64,000 bases of DNA, taken from the IMG/VR virus record IMGVR_UViG_3300043399_000509. One strand, given 5' to 3'. Positions 6,433-26,860 of the stretch are shown in pieces. The notes below the pieces were generated by a model. The model searched no databases. It saw nothing but the letters and a program-made list of their open reading frames with translations, and was not told the DNA's origin. How positions within the stretch are numbered: position 1 is the stretch's first letter; each line of letters opens with the position of its first letter. The translations under genes and the position numbers were made by a program. The stretch is from a virus.

Positions 6433-6624
6433 CTAATCTAACAAATCATCATTCAGGATTTGACACTGAACTTGATATCCAACTTGGACCCTGATTTGAT
6501 CCAAGACTTGATATCCAACTTGATCCAATACTTGAGACCTGACTTGAAACCCGACTTGATTCCAAACTTGTTCCTCGACTTCAAACCTGACTTGATATTT
6601 ATTTTGTTCTTCTACATTTTTCAT
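6433..6624 (-). CDS. QV-tetrapeptide-repeat small protein (outlying copy)
   Basis: QVWNQVGFQVRSQVLDQVGYQVLDQ. Confidence 0.7.
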   Translation of the reverse strand: MKNVEEQNKYQVRFEVEEQVWNQVGFQVRSQVLDQVGYQVLDQIRVQVGYQVQCQILNDDLLD

Positions 6625-14934: not shown

Positions 14935-15186
14935 CTATGAATAACTGATACTCCTGATTGAGTCCAGCCTAAATGATCGCCAATTATTATTATCTATATC
15001 CCATACAACAAGCACATCCTCATTTTCCTTTTTGGATGATTCTGTGATGTATTCTGGTAGATAATCTTCCAGTAGCGTGCATCGCATCTGTCTTAGGCTA
15101 CCATCAGATTTCTCAAACACAACAGTCATAATATGGCTTTGAAGATTGCTCTTTAGACTTTCTTGTTCTAACATAACTTCAGTCAT
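14935..15186 (-). CDS. SH3/Sm-like (WYL_2-type) small protein
   Basis: VFEKSDGSLRQMRCTL...VWDID...WRSFRLDS. Confidence 0.75.
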   Translation of the reverse strand: MTEVMLEQESLKSNLQSHIMTVVFEKSDGSLRQMRCTLLEDYLPEYITESSKKENEDVLVVWDIDNNNWRSFRLDSIRSISYS

Positions 15187-15189
15187 TTT

Positions 15190-15450
15190 TTATCGTCCCC
15201 TGTTATTTTCTAGGATAGCCTCAATAACATCTTTGTGTTGGTCTATTATATGGAAAGTGTAATCTTCCATTAGATACGCACAACATAATCCAATAATCAA
15301 AATATTTATGTCAGTGATTACTCCCAAGGCATAAAAAAGTGTGCCAATAACTCCAAGTATATACACGAAGTTTATTGTAAAGAATATTGTTGCCATTAGA
15401 TATATAATGGTTTTGCCATTTTCTTCAATGAACTTTTTCATTTTAGGCAA
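15190..15450 (-). CDS. membrane protein
   Basis: Two hydrophobic segments. Confidence 0.6.
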   Translation of the reverse strand: MPKMKKFIEENGKTIIYLMATIFFTINFVYILGVIGTLFYALGVITDINILIIGLCCAYLMEDYTFHIIDQHKDVIEAILENNRGR

Positions 15451-15688
15451 TCTCCAAATATACTCTTAGGTCTTCATATCCACCAATACGAATACCATCA
15501 AATCTAAAAATCTGTGGTACTGTTGGTTTGATATCTGGTCCTAATATAGCACAAAGGTCTTCCTTTGTAAAGTCCTCATTGAATATTTTTTCTACATATT
15601 GAATATGTAGGTTTTCAAGGATTGCCTTGGCTTTATCACACCAAGGGCAATCTGGTTTAGAGTATATTATCATTTTCATACTATTCAT
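15443..15688 (-). CDS. glutaredoxin
   Basis: CPWC, TVPQIF, IGGYEDL. Confidence 0.92.
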   Translation of the reverse strand: MNSMKMIIYSKPDCPWCDKAKAILENLHIQYVEKIFNEDFTKEDLCAILGPDIKPTVPQIFRFDGIRIGGYEDLRVYLEIA

Positions 15689-16025
15689 TCATTTGATCCC
15701 TAACTTCATCCCTAGCTTTATGGTAGACTTGATCCCTGACTTGATCCTCGACTTGAGACATGACTTGATCCAAGACTCGATCCCAGACTTGAATCCCAAC
15801 ACGATCCCAGGTTTGATTACAGAGTTGATCCCTGATTTGGTCCCATAATTGAAACCTGACTTGATCCCTGATTTGGTCCCATAATTGAAACCTGACTTGA
15901 TCCCAGACTTCACCTTCAACTTGGCTTTCAACTTGAAACCTGACTTGACCATCGGCTTCATTCCAGACTCGATCAAAGACTTGATCAAAAACTTTAGGTG
16001 CAACTTGATCTTTCATACTATTCAT
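15681..16025 (-). CDS. QV-repeat protein
   Basis: MNSMKDQV...; internal 36-nt tandem duplication 15825-15896. Confidence 0.8.
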   Translation of the reverse strand: MNSMKDQVAPKVFDQVFDRVWNEADGQVRFQVESQVEGEVWDQVRFQLWDQIRDQVRFQLWDQIRDQLCNQTWDRVGIQVWDRVLDQVMSQVEDQVRDQVYHKARDEVRDQMNE

Positions 16026-16218
16026 TTATTTGGTACCTGACTTGATTTCTGACACAATCATAGATTTGATCGTGGATTCGATTCCTAACTTGAATACTAA
16101 TTTCAGTATTGACTTGTTGATGGACCTGATCCCAGGCTTGATCACTAACTTTATCCCCAACTTGATCCCAGACTTGATTATAGACTTGAGTGTCTATTCG
16201 TTTTTTCATACTATTCAT
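16018..16218 (-). CDS. QV-repeat protein
   Basis: MNSMKK...QINE*. Confidence 0.8.
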   Translation of the reverse strand: MNSMKKRIDTQVYNQVWDQVGDKVSDQAWDQVHQQVNTEISIQVRNRIHDQIYDCVRNQVRYQINE

Positions 16219-16397
16219 TTAGTTTCATCCCGAACTTGATCTTGGACTGGAACTAAGGCTTGAGGACATATTTGATTTCTCACTTGAACAGTGAGTTCCC
16301 AACCTTGATCCAAGACTCGATCCCAGACTTGAATCCCAACACGATCCCAGGTTTGATTACAGAGTTGATCCCTGACTTTGTGTTTCACACTATTCAT
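16215..16397 (-). CDS. QV-repeat protein
   Basis: MNSVKH...DETK*. Confidence 0.8.
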   Translation of the reverse strand: MNSVKHKVRDQLCNQTWDRVGIQVWDRVLDQGWELTVQVRNQICPQALVPVQDQVRDETK

Positions 16398-16578
16398 TTA
16401 GTTGATCCTTCATTTGAGACCTAACTTGATCTCCAACTTGAACCCATACCTGATCATCAACTGGAGTCCAGATATATGTATCAACCTGAGACATTACACG
16501 AAGATAAACATGATCTCTGATTTGATCCTCAATCTCATTCCAGATGTCAGCATCAATTCGTCTATCCACACTATTCAT
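16390..16578 (-). CDS. QV-repeat protein
   Basis: MNSVDRR...QLNE*. Confidence 0.8.
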   Translation of the reverse strand: MNSVDRRIDADIWNEIEDQIRDHVYLRVMSQVDTYIWTPVDDQVWVQVGDQVRSQMKDQLNE

Positions 16579-16582
16579 TTTA

Positions 16583-17398
16583 TCAAACCTCAAAATAAGT
16601 ATCAGGGTTGAAGTGCGTTGCTATGCTTTCATACCCTTCATAACCACGAGCATTAGATACAAGTGTGGTTTCACCAATCTCAAACTTTGACTGAATGTGA
16701 GTATGACCAAACACCCAATACTTTACCTGTGGTCTATCCATAATGAACTCATCAAGGGCACTCGCATAACCAGCATCAAGGTGATTACCACCGTGATAAG
16801 GATTGATTCCTTTGTATGTGGGTGAATGATGTGTTACCACCACACAGTTCTTGTGCTTGTTTGCTTCCAGTTCTGTTGTTAGAAACTCCATTGTCTTTGT
16901 GTGCTTTTCATAGGCGTGCTTTGTAAAAAACCTATCCTTGCCGATTTCAATGTAATGAAAATCATTCATACCAGCACCAACAGCCCGATGTGCCAATGGA
17001 TCGTCTTTATTCATATCAGTCCATAGAGTGCCACCAAGCACAACTGTACTATCATCCAAATGATATGACGAATCATTCAGGTGAATTACACCCGGCAGAT
17101 ACTTCTCAATATACTCTGCTTCAAGGTTGATGTCAAACCCATATGACTCGTGGTTGCCAGTCACATAGAACACTCGCTTGAAGTTTTCACGGACGATATT
17201 GAAAAATGTTAGGGTGCGATCCCGTAGTTTTCTGTTCCGGGCATCAGTCATCCTTGGATTTAGTGCCCTCAACAAAGTGATGTCGCCAGCCAAAATGAGA
17301 TTGTCACCAGAGATTGCCATAAATCTTGGTGAAGCAAAAAATCTTGGTGAAGCAAACTCAATGTGTAGGTCAGACATATAATAGAACTTGTGTGTCAT
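16583..17398 (-). CDS. calcineurin-like metallophosphoesterase
   Basis: SDLH, AGD, GNHE, THH.P, GHTH; 18-nt tandem duplication (FASPRF x2) at 17321-17356. Confidence 0.9.
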   Translation of the reverse strand: MTHKFYYMSDLHIEFASPRFFASPRFMAISGDNLILAGDITLLRALNPRMTDARNRKLRDRTLTFFNIVRENFKRVFYVTGNHESYGFDINLEAEYIEKYLPGVIHLNDSSYHLDDSTVVLGGTLWTDMNKDDPLAHRAVGAGMNDFHYIEIGKDRFFTKHAYEKHTKTMEFLTTELEANKHKNCVVVTHHSPTYKGINPYHGGNHLDAGYASALDEFIMDRPQVKYWVFGHTHIQSKFEIGETTLVSNARGYEGYESIATHFNPDTYFEV

Positions 17399-17580
17399 TT
17401 TGTTTCATCCCAGACTTGAATATAGACTTGATCATGGACTTGATCGCTGACTTGATCCCAGACTCGACCCATGATTTGATCCCTGACTTGTTCATGGACT
17501 TGATCACTGACTTGATTCCAGACTTGTTCATGGACTTGACGCCGGACTTGATCACTGACTTGTTTTTTCACACTATTCAT
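17395..17580 (-). CDS. QV-repeat protein
   Basis: MNSVKKQVSDQV...DETK*. Confidence 0.8.
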   Translation of the reverse strand: MNSVKKQVSDQVRRQVHEQVWNQVSDQVHEQVRDQIMGRVWDQVSDQVHDQVYIQVWDETK

Positions 17581-17776
17581 TTAGTTGATCCCATACTTGA
17601 TTTCTAACTTGAGCCCAAACATGATCCCTGACTTGAACCTCGACTTGATCGCTGATTTGGTCCCAGATTTGATTTCTAATTTGTTCCCAGTCTTGAGACC
17701 AGACTTGATGATAAACACGAGAGGTTCTCAGTTCAGCCCAAGGTTGATCCCAGATATGTTGTTTCAAACTATTCAT
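17573..17776 (-). CDS. QV-repeat protein
   Basis: MNSLKQ...QLNE*. Confidence 0.8.
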   Translation of the reverse strand: MNSLKQHIWDQPWAELRTSRVYHQVWSQDWEQIRNQIWDQISDQVEVQVRDHVWAQVRNQVWDQLNE

Positions 17777-17945
17777 CTATTTGATCCCAACCTTGATCTC
17801 TAACTTGAAACCAAACCTGTTGATAAACTTGATTACTGGCTTGATTGCTGGTTTGAACCATAACTTGAATACAGACTTGAGATTTGATTTGTTCATAAAC
17901 GTGATCCCAAATCTTAGTTTTAGCTATCTGTCTCACACTATTCAT
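17769..17945 (-). CDS. QV-repeat protein (58 aa, not in ORF track)
   Basis: MNSVRQIAKTKIWDHV...QIDE*. Confidence 0.8.
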   Translation of the reverse strand: MNSVRQIAKTKIWDHVYEQIKSQVCIQVMVQTSNQASNQVYQQVWFQVRDQGWDQIDE

Positions 17946-18115
17946 TTCATTTCATCCCAGAGTTGATCATCCAATTGTTCCCAGAATAGAAACCTGACTT
18001 GAGCCCAAACATGATCCCTGACTTGATCAAGGGCTTGATCCCTGACTTGATTCCAGACTTGTTCATGGACTTGATCACTGACTTGAGACCAGACTTGTTT
18101 TTTCACACTATTCAT
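17942..18115 (-). CDS. QV-repeat protein
   Basis: MNSVKKQVWSQV...DEMK*. Confidence 0.8.
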   Translation of the reverse strand: MNSVKKQVWSQVSDQVHEQVWNQVRDQALDQVRDHVWAQVRFLFWEQLDDQLWDEMK

Positions 18116-18302
18116 CAATTTGATTCTCGACTTGAGTCCTGACTTGAGTCCTGACTTGAGCACAAACTTGTTTATCAACTTGGGTCCAGACTTGAAACCG
18201 GACTTGATCGTAGACTTGATTACTGACTTGATTATAGACTTGACTATCAACATTAGGCCAGACGTTACTTTTGACTTTGTATTTCACACTATTCATCATC
18301 AT
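18108..18302 (-). CDS. QV-repeat protein, first of sub-array
   Basis: GGAGAT RBS; MMMNSVKY...QIDE*. Confidence 0.8.
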   Translation of the reverse strand: MMMNSVKYKVKSNVWPNVDSQVYNQVSNQVYDQVRFQVWTQVDKQVCAQVRTQVRTQVENQIDE

Positions 18303-18351
18303 ATCTCCATAATGAAGAAGGGGTCCAGTTAGACCAGACCCCCTTTATGGT

Positions 18352-18690
18352 TTAGTCCTGCACTCGACGGAACCCCTCCGGGGTATACTCACGCTGACGC
18401 CGAACATGATAAGTTCCCTTATCAAACATAATAGGCTCGTGGGTATCGTAACTACGAAGGTGCTCAAGTGCCGTGGGATCATTCACAACGAGGAAGCAAT
18501 CCATAATGGAATCAGGCAGTGAATACATCTTCACCTTCTCTGCTTCCATAACATGGTTGTGACCCGTTTCTGAGTGAGTAACAATCAACTTACCATTTTC
18601 GGGCTTTACTTCCACAACATTTGCAGGAAGTGAGTCAACACGACGAATATACACATCGCCCTGAGCACAAGTATTTTTGAATGTTCGCAT
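18352..18690 (-). CDS. small beta-rich protein, putative partner of the DUF6745-like protein
   Basis: AQGDVYI, HSETGHNH, H..I....G.Y.VRRQREY.PEG.RRV.D motifs. Confidence 0.8.
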   Translation of the reverse strand: MRTFKNTCAQGDVYIRRVDSLPANVVEVKPENGKLIVTHSETGHNHVMEAEKVKMYSLPDSIMDCFLVVNDPTALEHLRSYDTHEPIMFDKGTYHVRRQREYTPEGFRRVQD

Positions 18691-18723
18691 TGTATAGTCT
18701 CCTTTGGTTTTCCATTATGTCTT

Positions 18724-18752
18724 ATAGTAGCATACTATTTAGTGGAAGTCAA
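18724..18752 (-). promoter_or_regulatory. sigma70-type promoter of the partner gene
   Basis: TTGACT-N17-TACTAT. Confidence 0.75.
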
Positions 18753-18904
18753 GTATAAAGTTTCATATAGTTCATTCAAACTTTGAACCCTAACATTATA
18801 AACAAGTTGTGCTGTATCTTCTAACATCCAATGATCAAATTTTGCTTCAATATCAACATGTTCATCAAATTCTGAATGAAATTTTGGAGTAAGATATACC
18901 TTAT

Positions 18905-19090
18905 TCAATCTTCCAGCCATCGTATATCTTCCTGTAGTTGAAATTCTACTGCGGAACGAACTTGTTCGCCCACCATTATATAGACAGGGCGTGGCACACC
19001 ACCACCTACTTGATCGGCAACTTCCTCACATACTACTTCTCCAAAAAAACCGTACAAAGTTGTATAAACCTTTTTTCTCACACTATTCAT
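18905..19090 (-). CDS. divergent QV-family protein
   Basis: MNSVRKKV...EVADQV...EQVRSAV. Confidence 0.7.
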   Translation of the reverse strand: MNSVRKKVYTTLYGFFGEVVCEEVADQVGGGVPRPVYIMVGEQVRSAVEFQLQEDIRWLED

Positions 19091-19295
19091 TGATTTGATC
19101 CCAAACTTCATCCCAGATTTGATCACCAACTTGATCATAGACTTGATCCCAGACATGAATAGTGACTCTATTCCCGATTTGATCCCAGACATGAAACCTG
19201 ACCTGATCCCTAACTTGAACCATGACTTGATCCCTAATTTGAACCTCGACCTGATACCTGACTTGATCATAGACTTGATCGAACACACTATTCAT
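19083..19295 (-). CDS. QV-repeat protein
   Basis: MNSVFDQVYDQV...QINE*. Confidence 0.8.
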   Translation of the reverse strand: MNSVFDQVYDQVRYQVEVQIRDQVMVQVRDQVRFHVWDQIGNRVTIHVWDQVYDQVGDQIWDEVWDQINE

Positions 19296-19452
19296 TGATT
19301 TGATTCCTGACTTGATGCCAGACTCGATGTACGATATGACCCCGGACATGATCACTGACCTGATTATCAACTTGAATACTGACTTGTTTCCAGAGTTGGT
19401 CTGTAACTTGAATCCAGTTTTCAGTTTGGATTTGTTCTCTCACACTATTCAT
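19288..19452 (-). CDS. QV-repeat protein
   Basis: MNSVREQI...QINE*. Confidence 0.8.
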   Translation of the reverse strand: MNSVREQIQTENWIQVTDQLWKQVSIQVDNQVSDHVRGHIVHRVWHQVRNQINE

Positions 19453-19621
19453 GTAACTGATTCCAGATGTGATTTCTGACTTGATTATTGACTTGATCTC
19501 GGACTTGACCCTTGACTTGAGTCCTGACTTGATCATAAATTTGAATACAGGCTTGATGTCTGGTTTGATTCCAAACTTGAATATAAGGTTGCTCCCAAAC
19601 TTGACCTTTCACACTATTCAT
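19445..19621 (-). CDS. QV-repeat protein
   Basis: MNSVKGQV...QLHE*. Confidence 0.8.
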   Translation of the reverse strand: MNSVKGQVWEQPYIQVWNQTRHQACIQIYDQVRTQVKGQVRDQVNNQVRNHIWNQLHE

Positions 19622-19847
19622 CAATTTGATTCCAAACTTTATCCCAAGCTTGATCCTCGACTTGATCATAAACTTGATCTTGGACTTGATATATAACTTG
19701 AATCTTAACTTGACTCCTAACTTGATTCTCGACTTTATCCCAGACTTGTTTACCAACTTGATTCTTGATTTGCATCTCAACTTGATCGTTGACTTGGCCG
19801 ACTGGAGTATATATTTGATTCCAAATTTGTTTTTTCACACTATTCAT
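19614..19847 (-). CDS. QV-repeat protein
   Basis: MNSVKKQIWNQ...QIDE*. Confidence 0.8.
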   Translation of the reverse strand: MNSVKKQIWNQIYTPVGQVNDQVEMQIKNQVGKQVWDKVENQVRSQVKIQVIYQVQDQVYDQVEDQAWDKVWNQIDE

Positions 19848-20035
19848 TTGATCTGATTCCATACTTCATCCCAAACTTGATTCCAGACTTGATTCTTGAC
19901 TTGATAACTGTTTTTATTTTCCCAACGCTGCATGATAACGGCTTGATCCCAAGCTTCATTACTTGTTTGATTTTTGACTTGATCCCTGACCTGAATATAG
20001 AGTTGAGACCCAATTTGTTTTGCCATACTATTCAT
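19844..20035 (-). CDS. QV-repeat protein
   Basis: MNSMAKQ...NQIK*. Confidence 0.8.
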   Translation of the reverse strand: MNSMAKQIGSQLYIQVRDQVKNQTSNEAWDQAVIMQRWENKNSYQVKNQVWNQVWDEVWNQIK

Positions 20036-20204
20036 CGATTTGTTCTTTGATTTGAACCATTGTTTTATGTCTAATTTGTTCCCAGAATGGATCACCAACT
20101 TTAATCCAGACTTGAGCCCTGACTTGAACCAAGATTTGATTCTCGACTTGATCCCAAACTTGATCGATGACTTGATACCTGACTTGATTTTTCACACTAT
20201 TCAT
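20028..20204 (-). CDS. QV-repeat protein
   Basis: MNSVKNQV...QIDE*. Confidence 0.8.
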   Translation of the reverse strand: MNSVKNQVRYQVIDQVWDQVENQILVQVRAQVWIKVGDPFWEQIRHKTMVQIKEQIDE

Positions 20205-20379
20205 CGATTTGATCCAAAATTTGAGCCGTAGTTTGATATCTGGCTTGTTCACAAAATTGATCACCGAATTGAGACCAGACTTGAGACCTGATTTGAATAC
20301 ATATTTCATGTCCGGTTTGATTGCAAACTTGAACAAAGATTTGATTCCAGATTTGTTTTCTCACACTATTCATAATCAT
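20197..20379 (-). CDS. QV-repeat protein, first of sub-array
   Basis: GGAGAT RBS; MIMNSVRKQ...QIDE*. Confidence 0.8.
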   Translation of the reverse strand: MIMNSVRKQIWNQIFVQVCNQTGHEICIQIRSQVWSQFGDQFCEQARYQTTAQILDQIDE

Positions 20380-20385
20380 ATCTCC

Positions 20386-20417
20386 ATAAAAGTAGAGGGG
20401 GTTTATGCCCCCTCTAC
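20386..20417 (-). terminator. intrinsic terminator-like hairpin between core gene and array
   Basis: GTAGAGGGGG/CCCCCTCTAC stem followed by TTTTAT on the minus strand. Confidence 0.65.
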
Positions 20418-20431
20418 CGGCACTCCCAAGA

Positions 20432-21304
20432 TTAGGTTCGGATTTCAGGTTTCAGGAAACTATCCTTATCAAACCCAAAAGTCCAAGCATTGGCATCCAG
20501 AGCAGTCTTCATATCAGGCGGAACAGGCAACGCAAACTCTCGACCCGTACCACACATAACACGCAGGAACTTCTCCTTACCAATCTCAGGAATTTCTACC
20601 TCAAGCAGTGTACCAATTTCAGGGTCTTCATCTTCATCAAGAACCTGAGCATCAAGGGCCTTGAGAATCTTGTTCCAACCAAGGATTTCACAGGCACAAC
20701 GACGCTGTTCAATGTTTTCCCAAGTTAGAGCAATCTCAGGATTCAACTTTTCCTTGTTCTCAATCCACTCGGCAGGAATGCGAGTACCGTGCCAAGCATA
20801 GACGCAGAAGCCATCACGGTAACGAATCGCTGGACCATCTTCACAGTGAAGTCGGTTCTGATCATCAAACTTGATGCGTTCTGGCCGATCCTGAAACACA
20901 ACCAGATCATCATAGACATTGAGCCAACCACAATGTTTGGCCAGTTCAATGAGACCATTCAACTTATTGCAGCATTCCAGACCGACCACATCACGGAAGT
21001 AGGCATAGAAGGCCAGCCAATAGGCATCGTGAGCACCATAAATCATTTCATTATAGATTTCACGCTTGGTTCGCTTTGGATCAATCTCCTGAATGATACG
21101 AATAGCATCCATAGGACCCTTGGCCGTGAGGAACTTTGTGGGTAGAGGCAAACCAACAAGTTCATATGCCATACACACAGCATCCTTGGCCTTTTCAAAA
21201 TCAACAGGTTCGGTGGATAGACCGATATCAATCCAAGTATCACGGTATTCACCAAACTTGGCCTTCTGTTCTTCAGTGAGTGCTTCAATCTTCTTAGTCG
21301 TCAT
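20432..21304 (-). CDS. DUF6745-like protein lacking an internal QV repeat region
   Basis: GLSTEP, YGAHDAYWLAFY, CGW, RLHCEDGPAIRYRDG..VYAWHG, NIEQRR, V.CGTGREFALPVPP...A..ANAWTFG; family assignment from recall. Confidence 0.75.
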   Translation of the reverse strand: MTTKKIEALTEEQKAKFGEYRDTWIDIGLSTEPVDFEKAKDAVCMAYELVGLPLPTKFLTAKGPMDAIRIIQEIDPKRTKREIYNEMIYGAHDAYWLAFYAYFRDVVGLECCNKLNGLIELAKHCGWLNVYDDLVVFQDRPERIKFDDQNRLHCEDGPAIRYRDGFCVYAWHGTRIPAEWIENKEKLNPEIALTWENIEQRRCACEILGWNKILKALDAQVLDEDEDPEIGTLLEVEIPEIGKEKFLRVMCGTGREFALPVPPDMKTALDANAWTFGFDKDSFLKPEIRT

Positions 21305-21339
21305 TGTATAAGTCCTCATTGGTTTCGCATTATGTTTCT

Positions 21340-21368
21340 ACTATAGCATAGGTAAAAAGGAAAGTCAA
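21340..21368 (-). promoter_or_regulatory. sigma70-type promoter of the core gene
   Basis: TTGACT-N17-TATAGT; nearly identical to the promoter at 26892-26920. Confidence 0.78.
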
Positions 21369-21377
21369 GCGTGATTT

Positions 21378-21563
21378 TTAGTCATAGATTTCATCTACAA
21401 GTCTATCTACAATTTTGTCGTGAACTTCAAAAATTTTATTTTCCAGTGGGCGTTCAATATCTCTCCACACAATATTATTAATCTTTATATCCACTTGAGA
21501 TTCAATTTTAGATGCAACTTCAGCATGACCTTTATGATATATTTGTCTATCAACAGATTTCAT
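21378..21563 (-). CDS. divergent QV-family protein
   Basis: MKSVDRQI...; 4-residue hydrophobic periodicity. Confidence 0.6.
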   Translation of the reverse strand: MKSVDRQIYHKGHAEVASKIESQVDIKINNIVWRDIERPLENKIFEVHDKIVDRLVDEIYD

Positions 21564-21733
21564 TTGGTTTCATCCCAGATTTGATCTTGGGTCAATCCGT
21601 TAACTTGAATAGCCATTTGACCCCAGACTTGATTCTGGCATTCAGCCTGAACTTGAAATGTGGTTTGATATTCAGTTTGATCGGTGACTTGAACCATAGG
21701 TTCACTTCTGATTTGTTTTCTCACACTATTCAT
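21560..21733 (-). CDS. QV-repeat protein (57 aa, not in ORF track)
   Basis: MNSVRKQIRSEPMVQV...DETK*. Confidence 0.78.
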   Translation of the reverse strand: MNSVRKQIRSEPMVQVTDQTEYQTTFQVQAECQNQVWGQMAIQVNGLTQDQIWDETK

Positions 21734-21903
21734 TTAGTTTCATCCCAGACTTGATTACTGACTTGAGTAATGGCTTGAGCCAAGTTTTGATCCCTGATTT
21801 GGTCCCATAATTGATCCCAGACTTGATCGCTGACTTTATCCCAAACTTGGTCACTGACTTGAATATAAACTTTATTCCAGATGTGTTTTCTCACACTATT
21901 CAT
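21730..21903 (-). CDS. QV-repeat protein
   Basis: MNSVRKHIWNKV...DETK*. Confidence 0.8.
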   Translation of the reverse strand: MNSVRKHIWNKVYIQVSDQVWDKVSDQVWDQLWDQIRDQNLAQAITQVSNQVWDETK

Positions 21904-22111
21904 TTTTGTATCCAACAACATCACAAATATCCTCAATAAGATCATAGGCATTTTCAATAACCCGATCACATTGGCCTATTGTTTCAGGGCAAGATATACG
22001 CTGATTCTCAATAAACTTTTCACAAACAACCCAAAGTTTTTTGAGCCGTTCTATATCAATCTCCTGATGTGCCATTCCATCCTCCGTCCTTATATACTTT
22101 ATTTCGCTCAC
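21896..22111 (-). CDS. hypothetical protein
   Basis: Ends YKNE*, overlapping the next MNSV start. Confidence 0.6.
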   Translation of the reverse strand: MSEIKYIRTEDGMAHQEIDIERLKKLWVVCEKFIENQRISCPETIGQCDRVIENAYDLIEDICDVVGYKNE

Positions 22112-22249
22112 AGGAAATCTTCATTAGTTCGTCTGCCAGAGCATCCAAGGCATTACGAACACAAAGTTCCATCTCTGTTATTTTTTCTGGCTTCAAATCC
22201 ATCCTACCGACGACACGACGAATGGCAAGTTCAACTACTTCAAAATCAT

Positions 22250-22435
22250 TCATTTGGTTTCATCCAAAAGTTGGTTACTGACTTGATTTCTGATTTGAAC
22301 CCAGACTTGATCACAGACTTGAACCCAGACTTGATCCATAACTTGTTCATAGATTTGATTACTGGCTTGATTATAGACTTGATCACAGACTTGATCCCGG
22401 ACTTGATCACAGACTTGTTTGCTCAAACTATTCAT
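22250..22435 (-). CDS. QV-repeat protein
   Basis: MNSLSKQVCDQVRDQV...DETK*. Confidence 0.8.
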   Translation of the reverse strand: MNSLSKQVCDQVRDQVCDQVYNQASNQIYEQVMDQVWVQVCDQVWVQIRNQVSNQLLDETK

Positions 22436-23965: not shown

Positions 23966-24559
23966 ATGTCTATTTATACCCCATCATTAGAATATTATGT
24001 TTATGCTTATCTAGGAATAGATGGCAAGCCTTATTATATTGGCAAAGGTAAAGGTTATAGGGCTTGGAGCAAACATAAGAAAATTATAGTTCCCGAGGAC
24101 AGGAAAAGGATTGTCATTTGCGAATCTAATCTAACGGAAGTTGGTGCGTTTGCTTTGGAAAGAAGGCTTATTCGTTGGTATGGTAGAAAAAATAATGGCA
24201 CAGGAATATTGAGAAATATGACTGATGGTGGAGAGGGTTTATCTGGTTTAGTATTTACTGAAGAATTAAGAATAAAAATTAGTGAAAGAACATCTGGTGA
24301 AAACCATCATCTCTTTGGTAAGAAGCATAGCGAAGAAACAAAAGAGAAAATAAGACAATCCAGACTAGGTAAAAAACATAGCGAAGAATCTAAACAAAAA
24401 ATGAGTGAAGAAAGAAAAGGTATAAATAACCCCTTCTTTGGTAAGAAACATAGTGATGAAGTTAAACAAATAGTAAGTCTAACAAATAAGAACAAAGTTA
24501 GAACAGAAGAAACAAAAAGAAAAATCAGTATGACAAAAAAGGCTATGCGGCAATTTTAG
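23966..24559 (+). mobile_element. GIY-YIG homing endonuclease with NUMOD3 repeats
   Basis: YVYAY...YYIGKG..R, LRNMTDGGEG, GKKHSEE repeats; antisense orientation; TATAAATA at 23894-23901. Confidence 0.9.
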
Positions 24560-25773: not shown

Positions 25774-26168
25774 TTGCTCTTTTCAAGTACAGCACTTCCA
25801 TCACAATAACCACACCGAACGGCTTTTGGTCCCGAAGATGCTTCAAAAAACATATCTTGTCTCCTTGGAACGTAACCATAGCCGTAACAGAACGGACATG
25901 ATACTTGATTGTCTTTGGGCACTCGTGGTGAACCTGAAAGTAGATAATGGCTGTTCGTCATATTGTTATCACCCGAAAGCATTGTAGTAGGAACTCTCAT
26001 CTTCATATTGTGAATACTTGTGATCTATCACAAGTCGTCCAGTGATTTCTTCAATCTCGGTTTGAAAATCCACAACAGTCATACGAGAACAATCACAGAT
26101 AGGCAAAGCACCATATGCAAGACGATATGTTTCAAGGTAAAGAGCCATCCAAAGATCACGCTTGCTGT

Positions 26169-26354
26169 TCATTTGATTTCCTCCCATACTTGAGCATAGA
26201 TTTGTCTCCAAACCTCATCATAAACCTCATCCACGATTTGAGACCTGACTTGATTATTGACTTGATTGTTGACTTGAGACCAGCCTTGAGCCCAGACTTG
26301 ATCCCTGACTTGTTCCATAACTTGGTCCCAGACTTGATTGCTCACACTATTCAT
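26169..26354 (-). CDS. QV-repeat protein (outlying copy)
   Basis: MNSVSNQVWDQV...EEIK*, with the same junction types as the array. Confidence 0.8.
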   Translation of the reverse strand: MNSVSNQVWDQVMEQVRDQVWAQGWSQVNNQVNNQVRSQIVDEVYDEVWRQIYAQVWEEIK

Positions 26355-26590
26355 TTTCAATATCCAGGTTATCATAGATTTGATCAAGTATCACACCGTG
26401 GAGATTATCATAGTCAATGGGTGATTCAAAGCACAAAGAAGTCCATAGATTAGCACTAACATATTTTATCAAATGATCAAATGTATCTTGTGTGGCTTTA
26501 TTAGAGACTTTACGATTCAGGCTTTTCATATCATCACCAAAAAAGAACAAAAGAGAGTGGGAATAATGACACTCCCACTCTCTACTTCCA

Positions 26591-26860
26591 TTAGGCTACC
26601 ATAGCAAGATCATAGTAGCTAATGGACTTCACGCTGTCAAGCCGGAACGAACGCCACTCGCTCTTGTCAAGGTCATAGGCTGCCACAACCTCTTCGTCGA
26701 TTTCACGAGTCTTCTTTGCGGAAGACTTCTTTGTCTTGGGCAGCATATCCTTGGCAAGTGTACAACGCATCGTTCGTTCTGTACCATCTGCCTTCTCAAA
26801 GGTTACCATAGCAATGGCAGACTTCAGGCCAGCAACAACTTCATCACGAATGAGTTCCAT
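26591..26860 (-). CDS. SH3/Sm-like (WYL_2-type) small protein, paralog of 14935..15186
   Basis: VTFEKADGTERTMRCTL...WRSFRLDS. Confidence 0.75.
   Translation of the reverse strand: MELIRDEVVAGLKSAIAMVTFEKADGTERTMRCTLAKDMLPKTKKSSAKKTREIDEEVVAAYDLDKSEWRSFRLDSVKSISYYDLAMVA

Follow-up and report, generated by a model that had tools for sequence, protein, structure and literature searches.

Why should a phage carry a crowd of tiny genes, each encoding little more than one four-residue motif repeated many times, and why should these genes surround a further pair? The question is raised by a 64,000-nucleotide (nt) stretch of viral DNA (hereafter the window), which comprises positions 31899-95898 of the complete 156,381-bp IMG/VR record IMGVR_UViG_3300043399_000509, a record with terminal repeats. 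The phage is T4-like: its helicase shares ~63% identity with gp41 of Synechococcus and Methylophilales phages. Between positions 15681 and 22435 of the window, 21 intact QV minigenes – all on the minus strand, and with products of 54-114 amino acids (aa) – surround a 290-aa protein (the core; 20432-21304, minus strand) and a 112-aa protein (the partner; 18352-18690, minus strand). An initial annotation of this DNA had given the same array with the same sizes and positions. Two outlying copies bring the total in the window to 23. Our data lead us to the view that core and partner are probably a fixed module, and that the repeat helix is its variable part, supplied in this phage in trans from 23 genes.

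Stand-alone repeats and repeat-less cores

The core is a member of DUF6745. A Pfam search, in accord with the initial annotation, matched residues 85-283 to PF20530 (E 1.4e-35; 122.9 bits against a gathering threshold of 27). It comprises an N-terminal helical docking part (residues ~1-145) and a conserved C-terminal part (147-290), and the AlphaFold2 model of the fold is confident (predicted local distance difference test, pLDDT, 92.8). In homologous cores a tetrapeptide tract – of QV, QL, SV, AV, AT or NI type, and ~50-340 aa in length – lies between core residues 76 and 89; in the core of the window the length of this insert is zero. The statement in the initial annotation, that DUF6745-type proteins often carry such tracts at a position where the present core has none, proved accurate on both counts. 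Forty-three non-redundant cores lack an insert, as this one does, and its membership of DUF6745 therefore rests on the profile. In some bacterial homologues leucine-rich repeats (LRRs) replace the whole N-terminal part, with retention of the C-terminal part and the partner. Such LRR-DUF6745 fusions are present in L206 (3266-4441) and also in L189, L199 and L210, all from Oxalobacter-labelled genome bins, one of which has several copies; those in L206 and L189 are accompanied by the His-rich partner.

Insert and stand-alone genes are all but mutually exclusive. With cores merged at 90% identity, and with the insert class defined by a length of at least 40 aa, stand-alone repeat genes were found near 36 of 43 repeat-less cores versus one of 31 insert cores (Fisher's test, 1e-12, uncorrected for kinship): this is the association across genomes that the initial annotation had proposed as a check. 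The number of minigenes near a core varies from 1 to ~18-21 across phages, and in some genomes an array is remote from the core. When whole records with fused cores were searched, matches to the repeat profile fell essentially on the core gene only. Four records with a repeat-less core and without counted minigenes nearby carry them elsewhere (one complete record has nine matches).

A further expectation was that QV arrays depend upon the core. Records with repeats were also sought by DNA patterns. Of 11 near-complete records that repeat DNA by itself had retrieved, a set that includes fused cores, 10 hold DUF6745; in the remaining one a short tract lies in another protein. In L284, which is complete and without DUF6745, a short QV tract lies inside an unrelated small protein. 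In L278 (87% complete) repeat genes are present and a search for the core gave no match.

On a quick tree of the cores the insert state changes at least eight times. Minigenes share their unit type with the fused cores nearest to them on the tree: QL minigenes occur in a clade with QL inserts (support 89), and AV minigenes beside a sister with an AV insert (99). This correspondence fits repeated fission. A core in L155 (9719-10521) combines a degenerate 96-aa insert with AV-type minigenes, whereas the AV insert of its sister core is intact; L155 may represent fission at an intermediate stage.

A predicted complex at the insertion site

Modelling of the core together with the product of minigene 20028-20204 gave an interaction prediction score from aligned errors (ipSAE) of 0.80 in three runs, compared with 0.01 for the best of three controls. 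Among solved complexes 58 of 80 reach the ipSAE mark, and among mismatched pairs two of 110; these counts are rough for the alignments used here. The runs share at least 92% of contacts, and the pLDDT of the partner chain is at least 86. Predicted contacts span core residues 4-175, with the sequence on either side of the insertion site included, and leave free the C-terminal part, which is the most conserved. The best-placed predicted pairs join minigene residues 2-5 to core residues 129-131, 47 and 86, a pairing that would explain why the starts of minigenes are conserved. By position within the tetrapeptide, the units in contact number 13/13, 13/13, 9/13 and 4/13 (positions 1 to 4, respectively); Q and V are predicted to be buried toward the core, and position 4 to be mostly exposed. 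Searches of the PDB by structure and by sequence found no solved complex of this kind. The docking model supports, short of showing, binding.

Coding nature and turnover of the minigenes

Of 324 units, 222 have Q at position 1 and 248 have V or I at position 2. Variation is wide at position 3 (among others W, R, Y, D, E and S) and at position 4 (among others D, N, E and S), which is the pattern that the initial annotation had reported. Nearly all minigenes start with M-N-S-V, their products are mostly acidic and aromatic-rich, and the median identity among the 21 is 40%. Nineteen are typical; the remaining two (18905-19090 and 21378-21563) are divergent, yet match the minigene profile at ~2e-6.

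No stop occurs in the 1,259 codons of the minigene frame, where ~44 are expected from independent base frequencies; the two other sense frames contain 16 and 120 stops, and the antisense frame six. Because the open reading frames (ORFs) had been pre-selected this count is partly circular, and for this reason three further tests were made. Conversion of W codons to TGA was seen in 0 of 69 cases versus 11 of 46 for AGG to AGA (p 2e-5), and CAA changes to TAA zero times and to AAA or GAA 30 times. A 12-nt profile derived from other phages gave 211 three-unit matches in the window, all of them in frame within intact genes, and none on five shuffles. As judged from sequence, the minigenes are under selection for coding. 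A shifted sense frame and the antisense frame were also considered as coding and were ruled out by stop counts, starts, ribosome-binding sites (RBSs) and promoters. Selection against stops, mutual exclusion and the predicted complex at the insertion site together support the proposal, put forward with the initial annotation, that a repeat module was split off and amplified.

Four close strains (L219, L220, L225 and L226), in which the core region is 91-96% identical in DNA, share only some minigenes with the window, the rest having been replaced; L227 was left out, for it looks error-rich and its core is also split. Length differences between near-identical strains are multiples of four residues (12 nt). 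The ratio of non-synonymous to synonymous substitution (dN/dS) is 0.04-0.07 for the core and, for the partner, 0.02 in two pairs and 0.16 in a third. Among orthologous minigenes it is 0.78 when pooled and 0.68 for five genes in one strain pair, and the latter value differs from those of core and partner (p 1e-9). The rate of change at position 4 is about double that at position 1 (p 9e-4, from pairs that are not independent). Turnover of this nature fits a constrained inner face and an outer face that would be either free or diversifying. Particular copies are kept across strains, one at a fixed position. In every close strain whose sequence spans the site (L219, L225 and L226), the heavily diverged minigene 18905-19090 is retained immediately before the partner, and is possibly a specialised or domesticated copy.

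The partner and its relatives

The neighbouring partner gene described in the initial annotation is found across genomes: the partner is present at 122 of 136 loci found by the core, and the core at 71 of 78 loci found by the partner, with several of the misses being short or cut contigs. No other neighbour gene recurs consistently around cores at non-redundant loci; a link to MoxR/DUF2201 does not apply, since the genome contains no DUF2201_N. In P0256, and in an atlas cluster, the partner is fused to the core. The partner domain of P0256 (residues 1-120) has lost several conserved His, and may as a consequence be a non-catalytic copy. The predicted fold of the partner is confident (pLDDT 88) and all-beta. 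Residues H39, E41, H44, H46, H77 and H84 are at least 98% conserved; five invariant His and one Glu suggest a putative metal site.

No Pfam family was found for the partner, the sole match being to phrog_27831. Fold searches of the PDB (Foldseek and VIA-align) gave a best Z of 4.4 for the core and 3.5 for the partner, with no Foldseek E below 0.001; a weak WGR-like entry (Z 3.6) was set aside. Sequence searches of the PDB gave nothing except one low-complexity match. NCBIfam yielded no match, and none of core, partner and minigenes matched a profile of PADLOC 2.0 (library from 2023). In the literature searched, nothing on the family was found, whether under DUF6745 and its accessions, under the repeat motifs or under tetrapeptide-repeat anti-defence.

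Organisation of the array

Followed along the minus strand, the array begins with a 61-aa QV minigene (22250-22435, recognised as an ORF with a match to the minigene profile) and, upstream of the core, continues with three more (21730-21903, 21560-21733 and the divergent 21378-21563). Eight chained minigenes then form a block at 18905-20373: 20197-20373, 20028-20204 (the one modelled), 19844-20035, 19614-19847, 19445-19621, 19288-19452, 19083-19295 and the divergent 18905-19090. Beyond the partner lie a chain of five (18108-18296, 17942-18115, 17769-17945, 17573-17776 and 17395-17580) and a chain of four (16390-16578, 16215-16397, 16018-16218 and 15681-16025, the last of 114 aa). The 20 junctions between minigenes comprise 11 start/stop overlaps of 8 nt, five overlaps of 4 nt, and four gaps with other genes.

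Core and partner are organised alike: each has its own sigma70-type motif within a similar promoter/RBS cassette, and each is followed by a hairpin and a minigene sub-array. The motif before the core (21340-21368, minus strand) has an extended -10 and is kept in L219, L225 and L226; that before the partner is at 18724-18752 (minus strand); both are consensus matches only. A GC-rich hairpin after the core (20394-20413, minus strand) precedes the RBS of the first downstream minigene, and a second after the partner (18318-18344, minus strand) precedes the RBS of the next. With regard to early expression, as envisaged in the initial annotation, the sigma70-type motifs are the one element in favour; the homologues of core and partner in Microcystis phage Ma-LMM01 (gp174 and gp175) are middle-class B5 transcripts (PMC5780444).

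The non-family genes within the array region are two small ORFs at 21896-22253 and a metallophosphoesterase (16583-17398, minus strand), which a 4-nt overlap joins to the array. Relatives of the latter lie near cores at only 6 of 132 non-redundant loci, and it is probably a passenger. A glutaredoxin gene (15443-15688, minus strand) shares minigene-like first residues and an 8-nt junction, and so appears joined to the translation chain of the array. The outlying QV minigenes, both identified by profile match and both on the minus strand, are at 26169-26354 (61 aa) and 6433-6624 (63 aa). These are two of three extra copies named in the initial annotation; the third, 26347-26529, is not supported as a member, having no match to the minigene profile and an hhalign probability of 2%. 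It and 25969-26172 (both minus strand) are small genes that flank the copy at 26169, with minigene-like starts and overlaps and no profile match. Further afield, two short paralogous ORFs (14935-15186 and 26591-26860, minus strand) resemble WYL_2-type phage proteins, for which there is a faint Pfam match in the relative L227. Homing endonuclease genes of NUMOD3 type lie antisense directly after the core or the partner in L226 (973-1557) and L225 (2521-3180); a similar endonuclease in the window is at 23966-24559 (plus strand).

Discussion

The layout described here is a real, recurrent and undescribed architecture. We propose that the repeat, which is an internal insert in most relatives, has been detached in this phage, and that each minigene product would take the place of the insert in trans. 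Such a product would wrap around the core's N-terminal half. Its Q and V residues (positions 1 and 2) would be buried, its conserved first residues would pair with core strand 129-131, and position 4 – and in part position 3 – would face outward. We infer that subunits are swapped: one core could in this way display many different surfaces, and a fixed activity would come from its C-terminal part together with the partner, a putative metal binder. The library would be renewed as 12-nt units, and the shared start/stop junction, undergo slippage and recombination.

What such a module might do is a separate issue. Fast turnover, the accessory-gene setting, the substitution by LRRs and an analogy with gp54 of mycobacteriophage Tweety favour recognition of host targets, perhaps in counter-defence. 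A host-directed role, for example the recognition and disabling of host defence proteins, is possible, and we hold it with something less than conviction. More doubtful is the fullest form of the proposal, namely a widespread scaffold-effector programmed by a renewable library of ~60-residue helices, with a two-position code per tetrapeptide, recognition and neutralisation of many host targets at once, and an origin in several fissions of a fused ancestor.

Comparison with known systems helps to place the locus. Members of DUF6745 (PF20530; phrog_31813) include Ma-LMM01 gp174, with gp175 as its partner, and gp38 of Mycobacterium prophiGD102-1. The core of the window has the same partner and the same conserved C-terminal part; unlike members with an insert, it has no internal repeat, and 23 separate genes supply the repeat instead. 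Exchangeable specificity subunits are familiar from the HsdS cassettes of type I restriction, from F-box adaptors and from LRR receptors. These systems likewise combine a fixed effector with a variable recognition part, and LRR-DUF6745 fusions with the partner exist; in contrast to them, the variable part here is a single helix with a four-residue period, and no relation in sequence or fold was found. A closer parallel is Tweety gp54 (Che8 gp57, PMC gp51), a non-essential protein with a tetrapeptide repeat, a 12-nt unit and variable copy number (PMC2884959, PMC9262239). The number of repeats in gp54 is reported to tune escape from the Phrann gp29/gp30 defence (PMC9262239, PMC2884959). Two fixed and two variable residues per unit, and a copy number that changes by 12 nt, are shared with the present locus. 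However, Tweety gp54 is one chain, with A-A-x-x units between two domains, whereas here there are separate chains and a partner gene; comparison of the two gave no sign of homology, flanking domains included (hhalign probability 0.09%, E 0.59), and gp54 has no DUF6745 match. By analogy the locus may work like Tweety gp54, but it is no member of that family.

A number of observations weigh against our interpretation. The complex test is readily passed by the two halves of a split gene, fused DUF6745 sequences may have taught the model this contact, the modelling covers one minigene of 23, and the conservation of predicted interface residues is 0.57 versus 0.55 elsewhere. The dN/dS of the minigenes does not differ from 1 (p 0.17), which fits relaxed and diversifying selection alike. 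Homogenisation at the level of DNA shapes the array: CAA makes up 96% of Q codons in the array versus 56% genome-wide, and codon use so much narrower than that of the genome points to ongoing slippage or conversion. As to mutual exclusion, only four independent pairs lie on well-supported branches of the tree (2.8 agree on average, none disagrees, p 0.25), and the tree-corrected test is underpowered. Some cores lack a long insert and minigenes alike; one of them, in the complete record L064, has an insert of 25 aa.

Several of these features would be expected if the helix were a structural plug. A repeat-less core would then need any one repeat helix in order to fold or work, and slippage and unequal recombination would have produced the array incidentally, positions 3 and 4 being under little selection. 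The complex model fits this account equally well, and it accommodates a dN/dS indistinguishable from 1, the strong codon homogenisation and a copy number near the core of anything from 1 to ~18-21 between phages. Redundancy of that kind, however, should permit decay, and among 211 repeat matches there is no broken copy; moreover, median identity among the 21 is only 40%, and particular copies are retained across strains, one of them in a fixed place. We regard this explanation as unlikely. A lower probability still attaches to the idea that the products act mainly alone, as decoys or inhibitors aimed at host factors or at fused DUF6745 proteins that competitors (phages and prophages) encode, with the link to their own core being historical. 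Minigenes are nearly absent beside fused cores, an absence that stand-alone inhibitors would not need, and docking onto their own core is confidently predicted; on the other side stand the distance of some arrays from the core, the two outlying copies in the window, the acidic and aromatic-rich character of most products, and the fact that viral records and bacterial genomes commonly contain fused cores.

Might the array be no more than selfish or untranslated 12-nt repeat DNA, its ORFs being a by-product of low stop content? Homogenisation of the DNA is in keeping with this, as is an antisense frame that is also poor in stops (six). Yet stops are avoided in the minigene frame only (zero versus 16 and 120 in the other sense frames), CAA goes to AAA or GAA 30 times and never to TAA, indels between strains come in multiples of 12 nt, and starts, RBSs and overlaps are conserved: the explanation is highly improbable. 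Next to no probability can be given to the minigenes being targets of a diversity-generating retroelement, an idea to which variable positions within a repeated frame lend some appeal. The complete genome has no reverse transcriptase, variation is not adenine-specific, and the A bases of Q codons are among the most conserved.

The reading that we prefer, a fixed module with a variable helix supplied in trans, bears on a large and little-studied family. The partner family alone comprises ~6,450 clusters at 50% identity, and for neither core nor partner is there a solved fold or a paper. A direct handle on this family comes from the split form: a small predicted heterodimer in which the fixed residues are buried and the variable ones exposed. 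If the variable face selects targets, then the array would represent a new type of binder library, carried by a phage, and would offer a simple scaffold on which binding could be programmed. Many tiny phage ORFs, a large class that annotation often overlooks, would be explained as well. More generally, the case shows how repeat arrays yield divergent genes.

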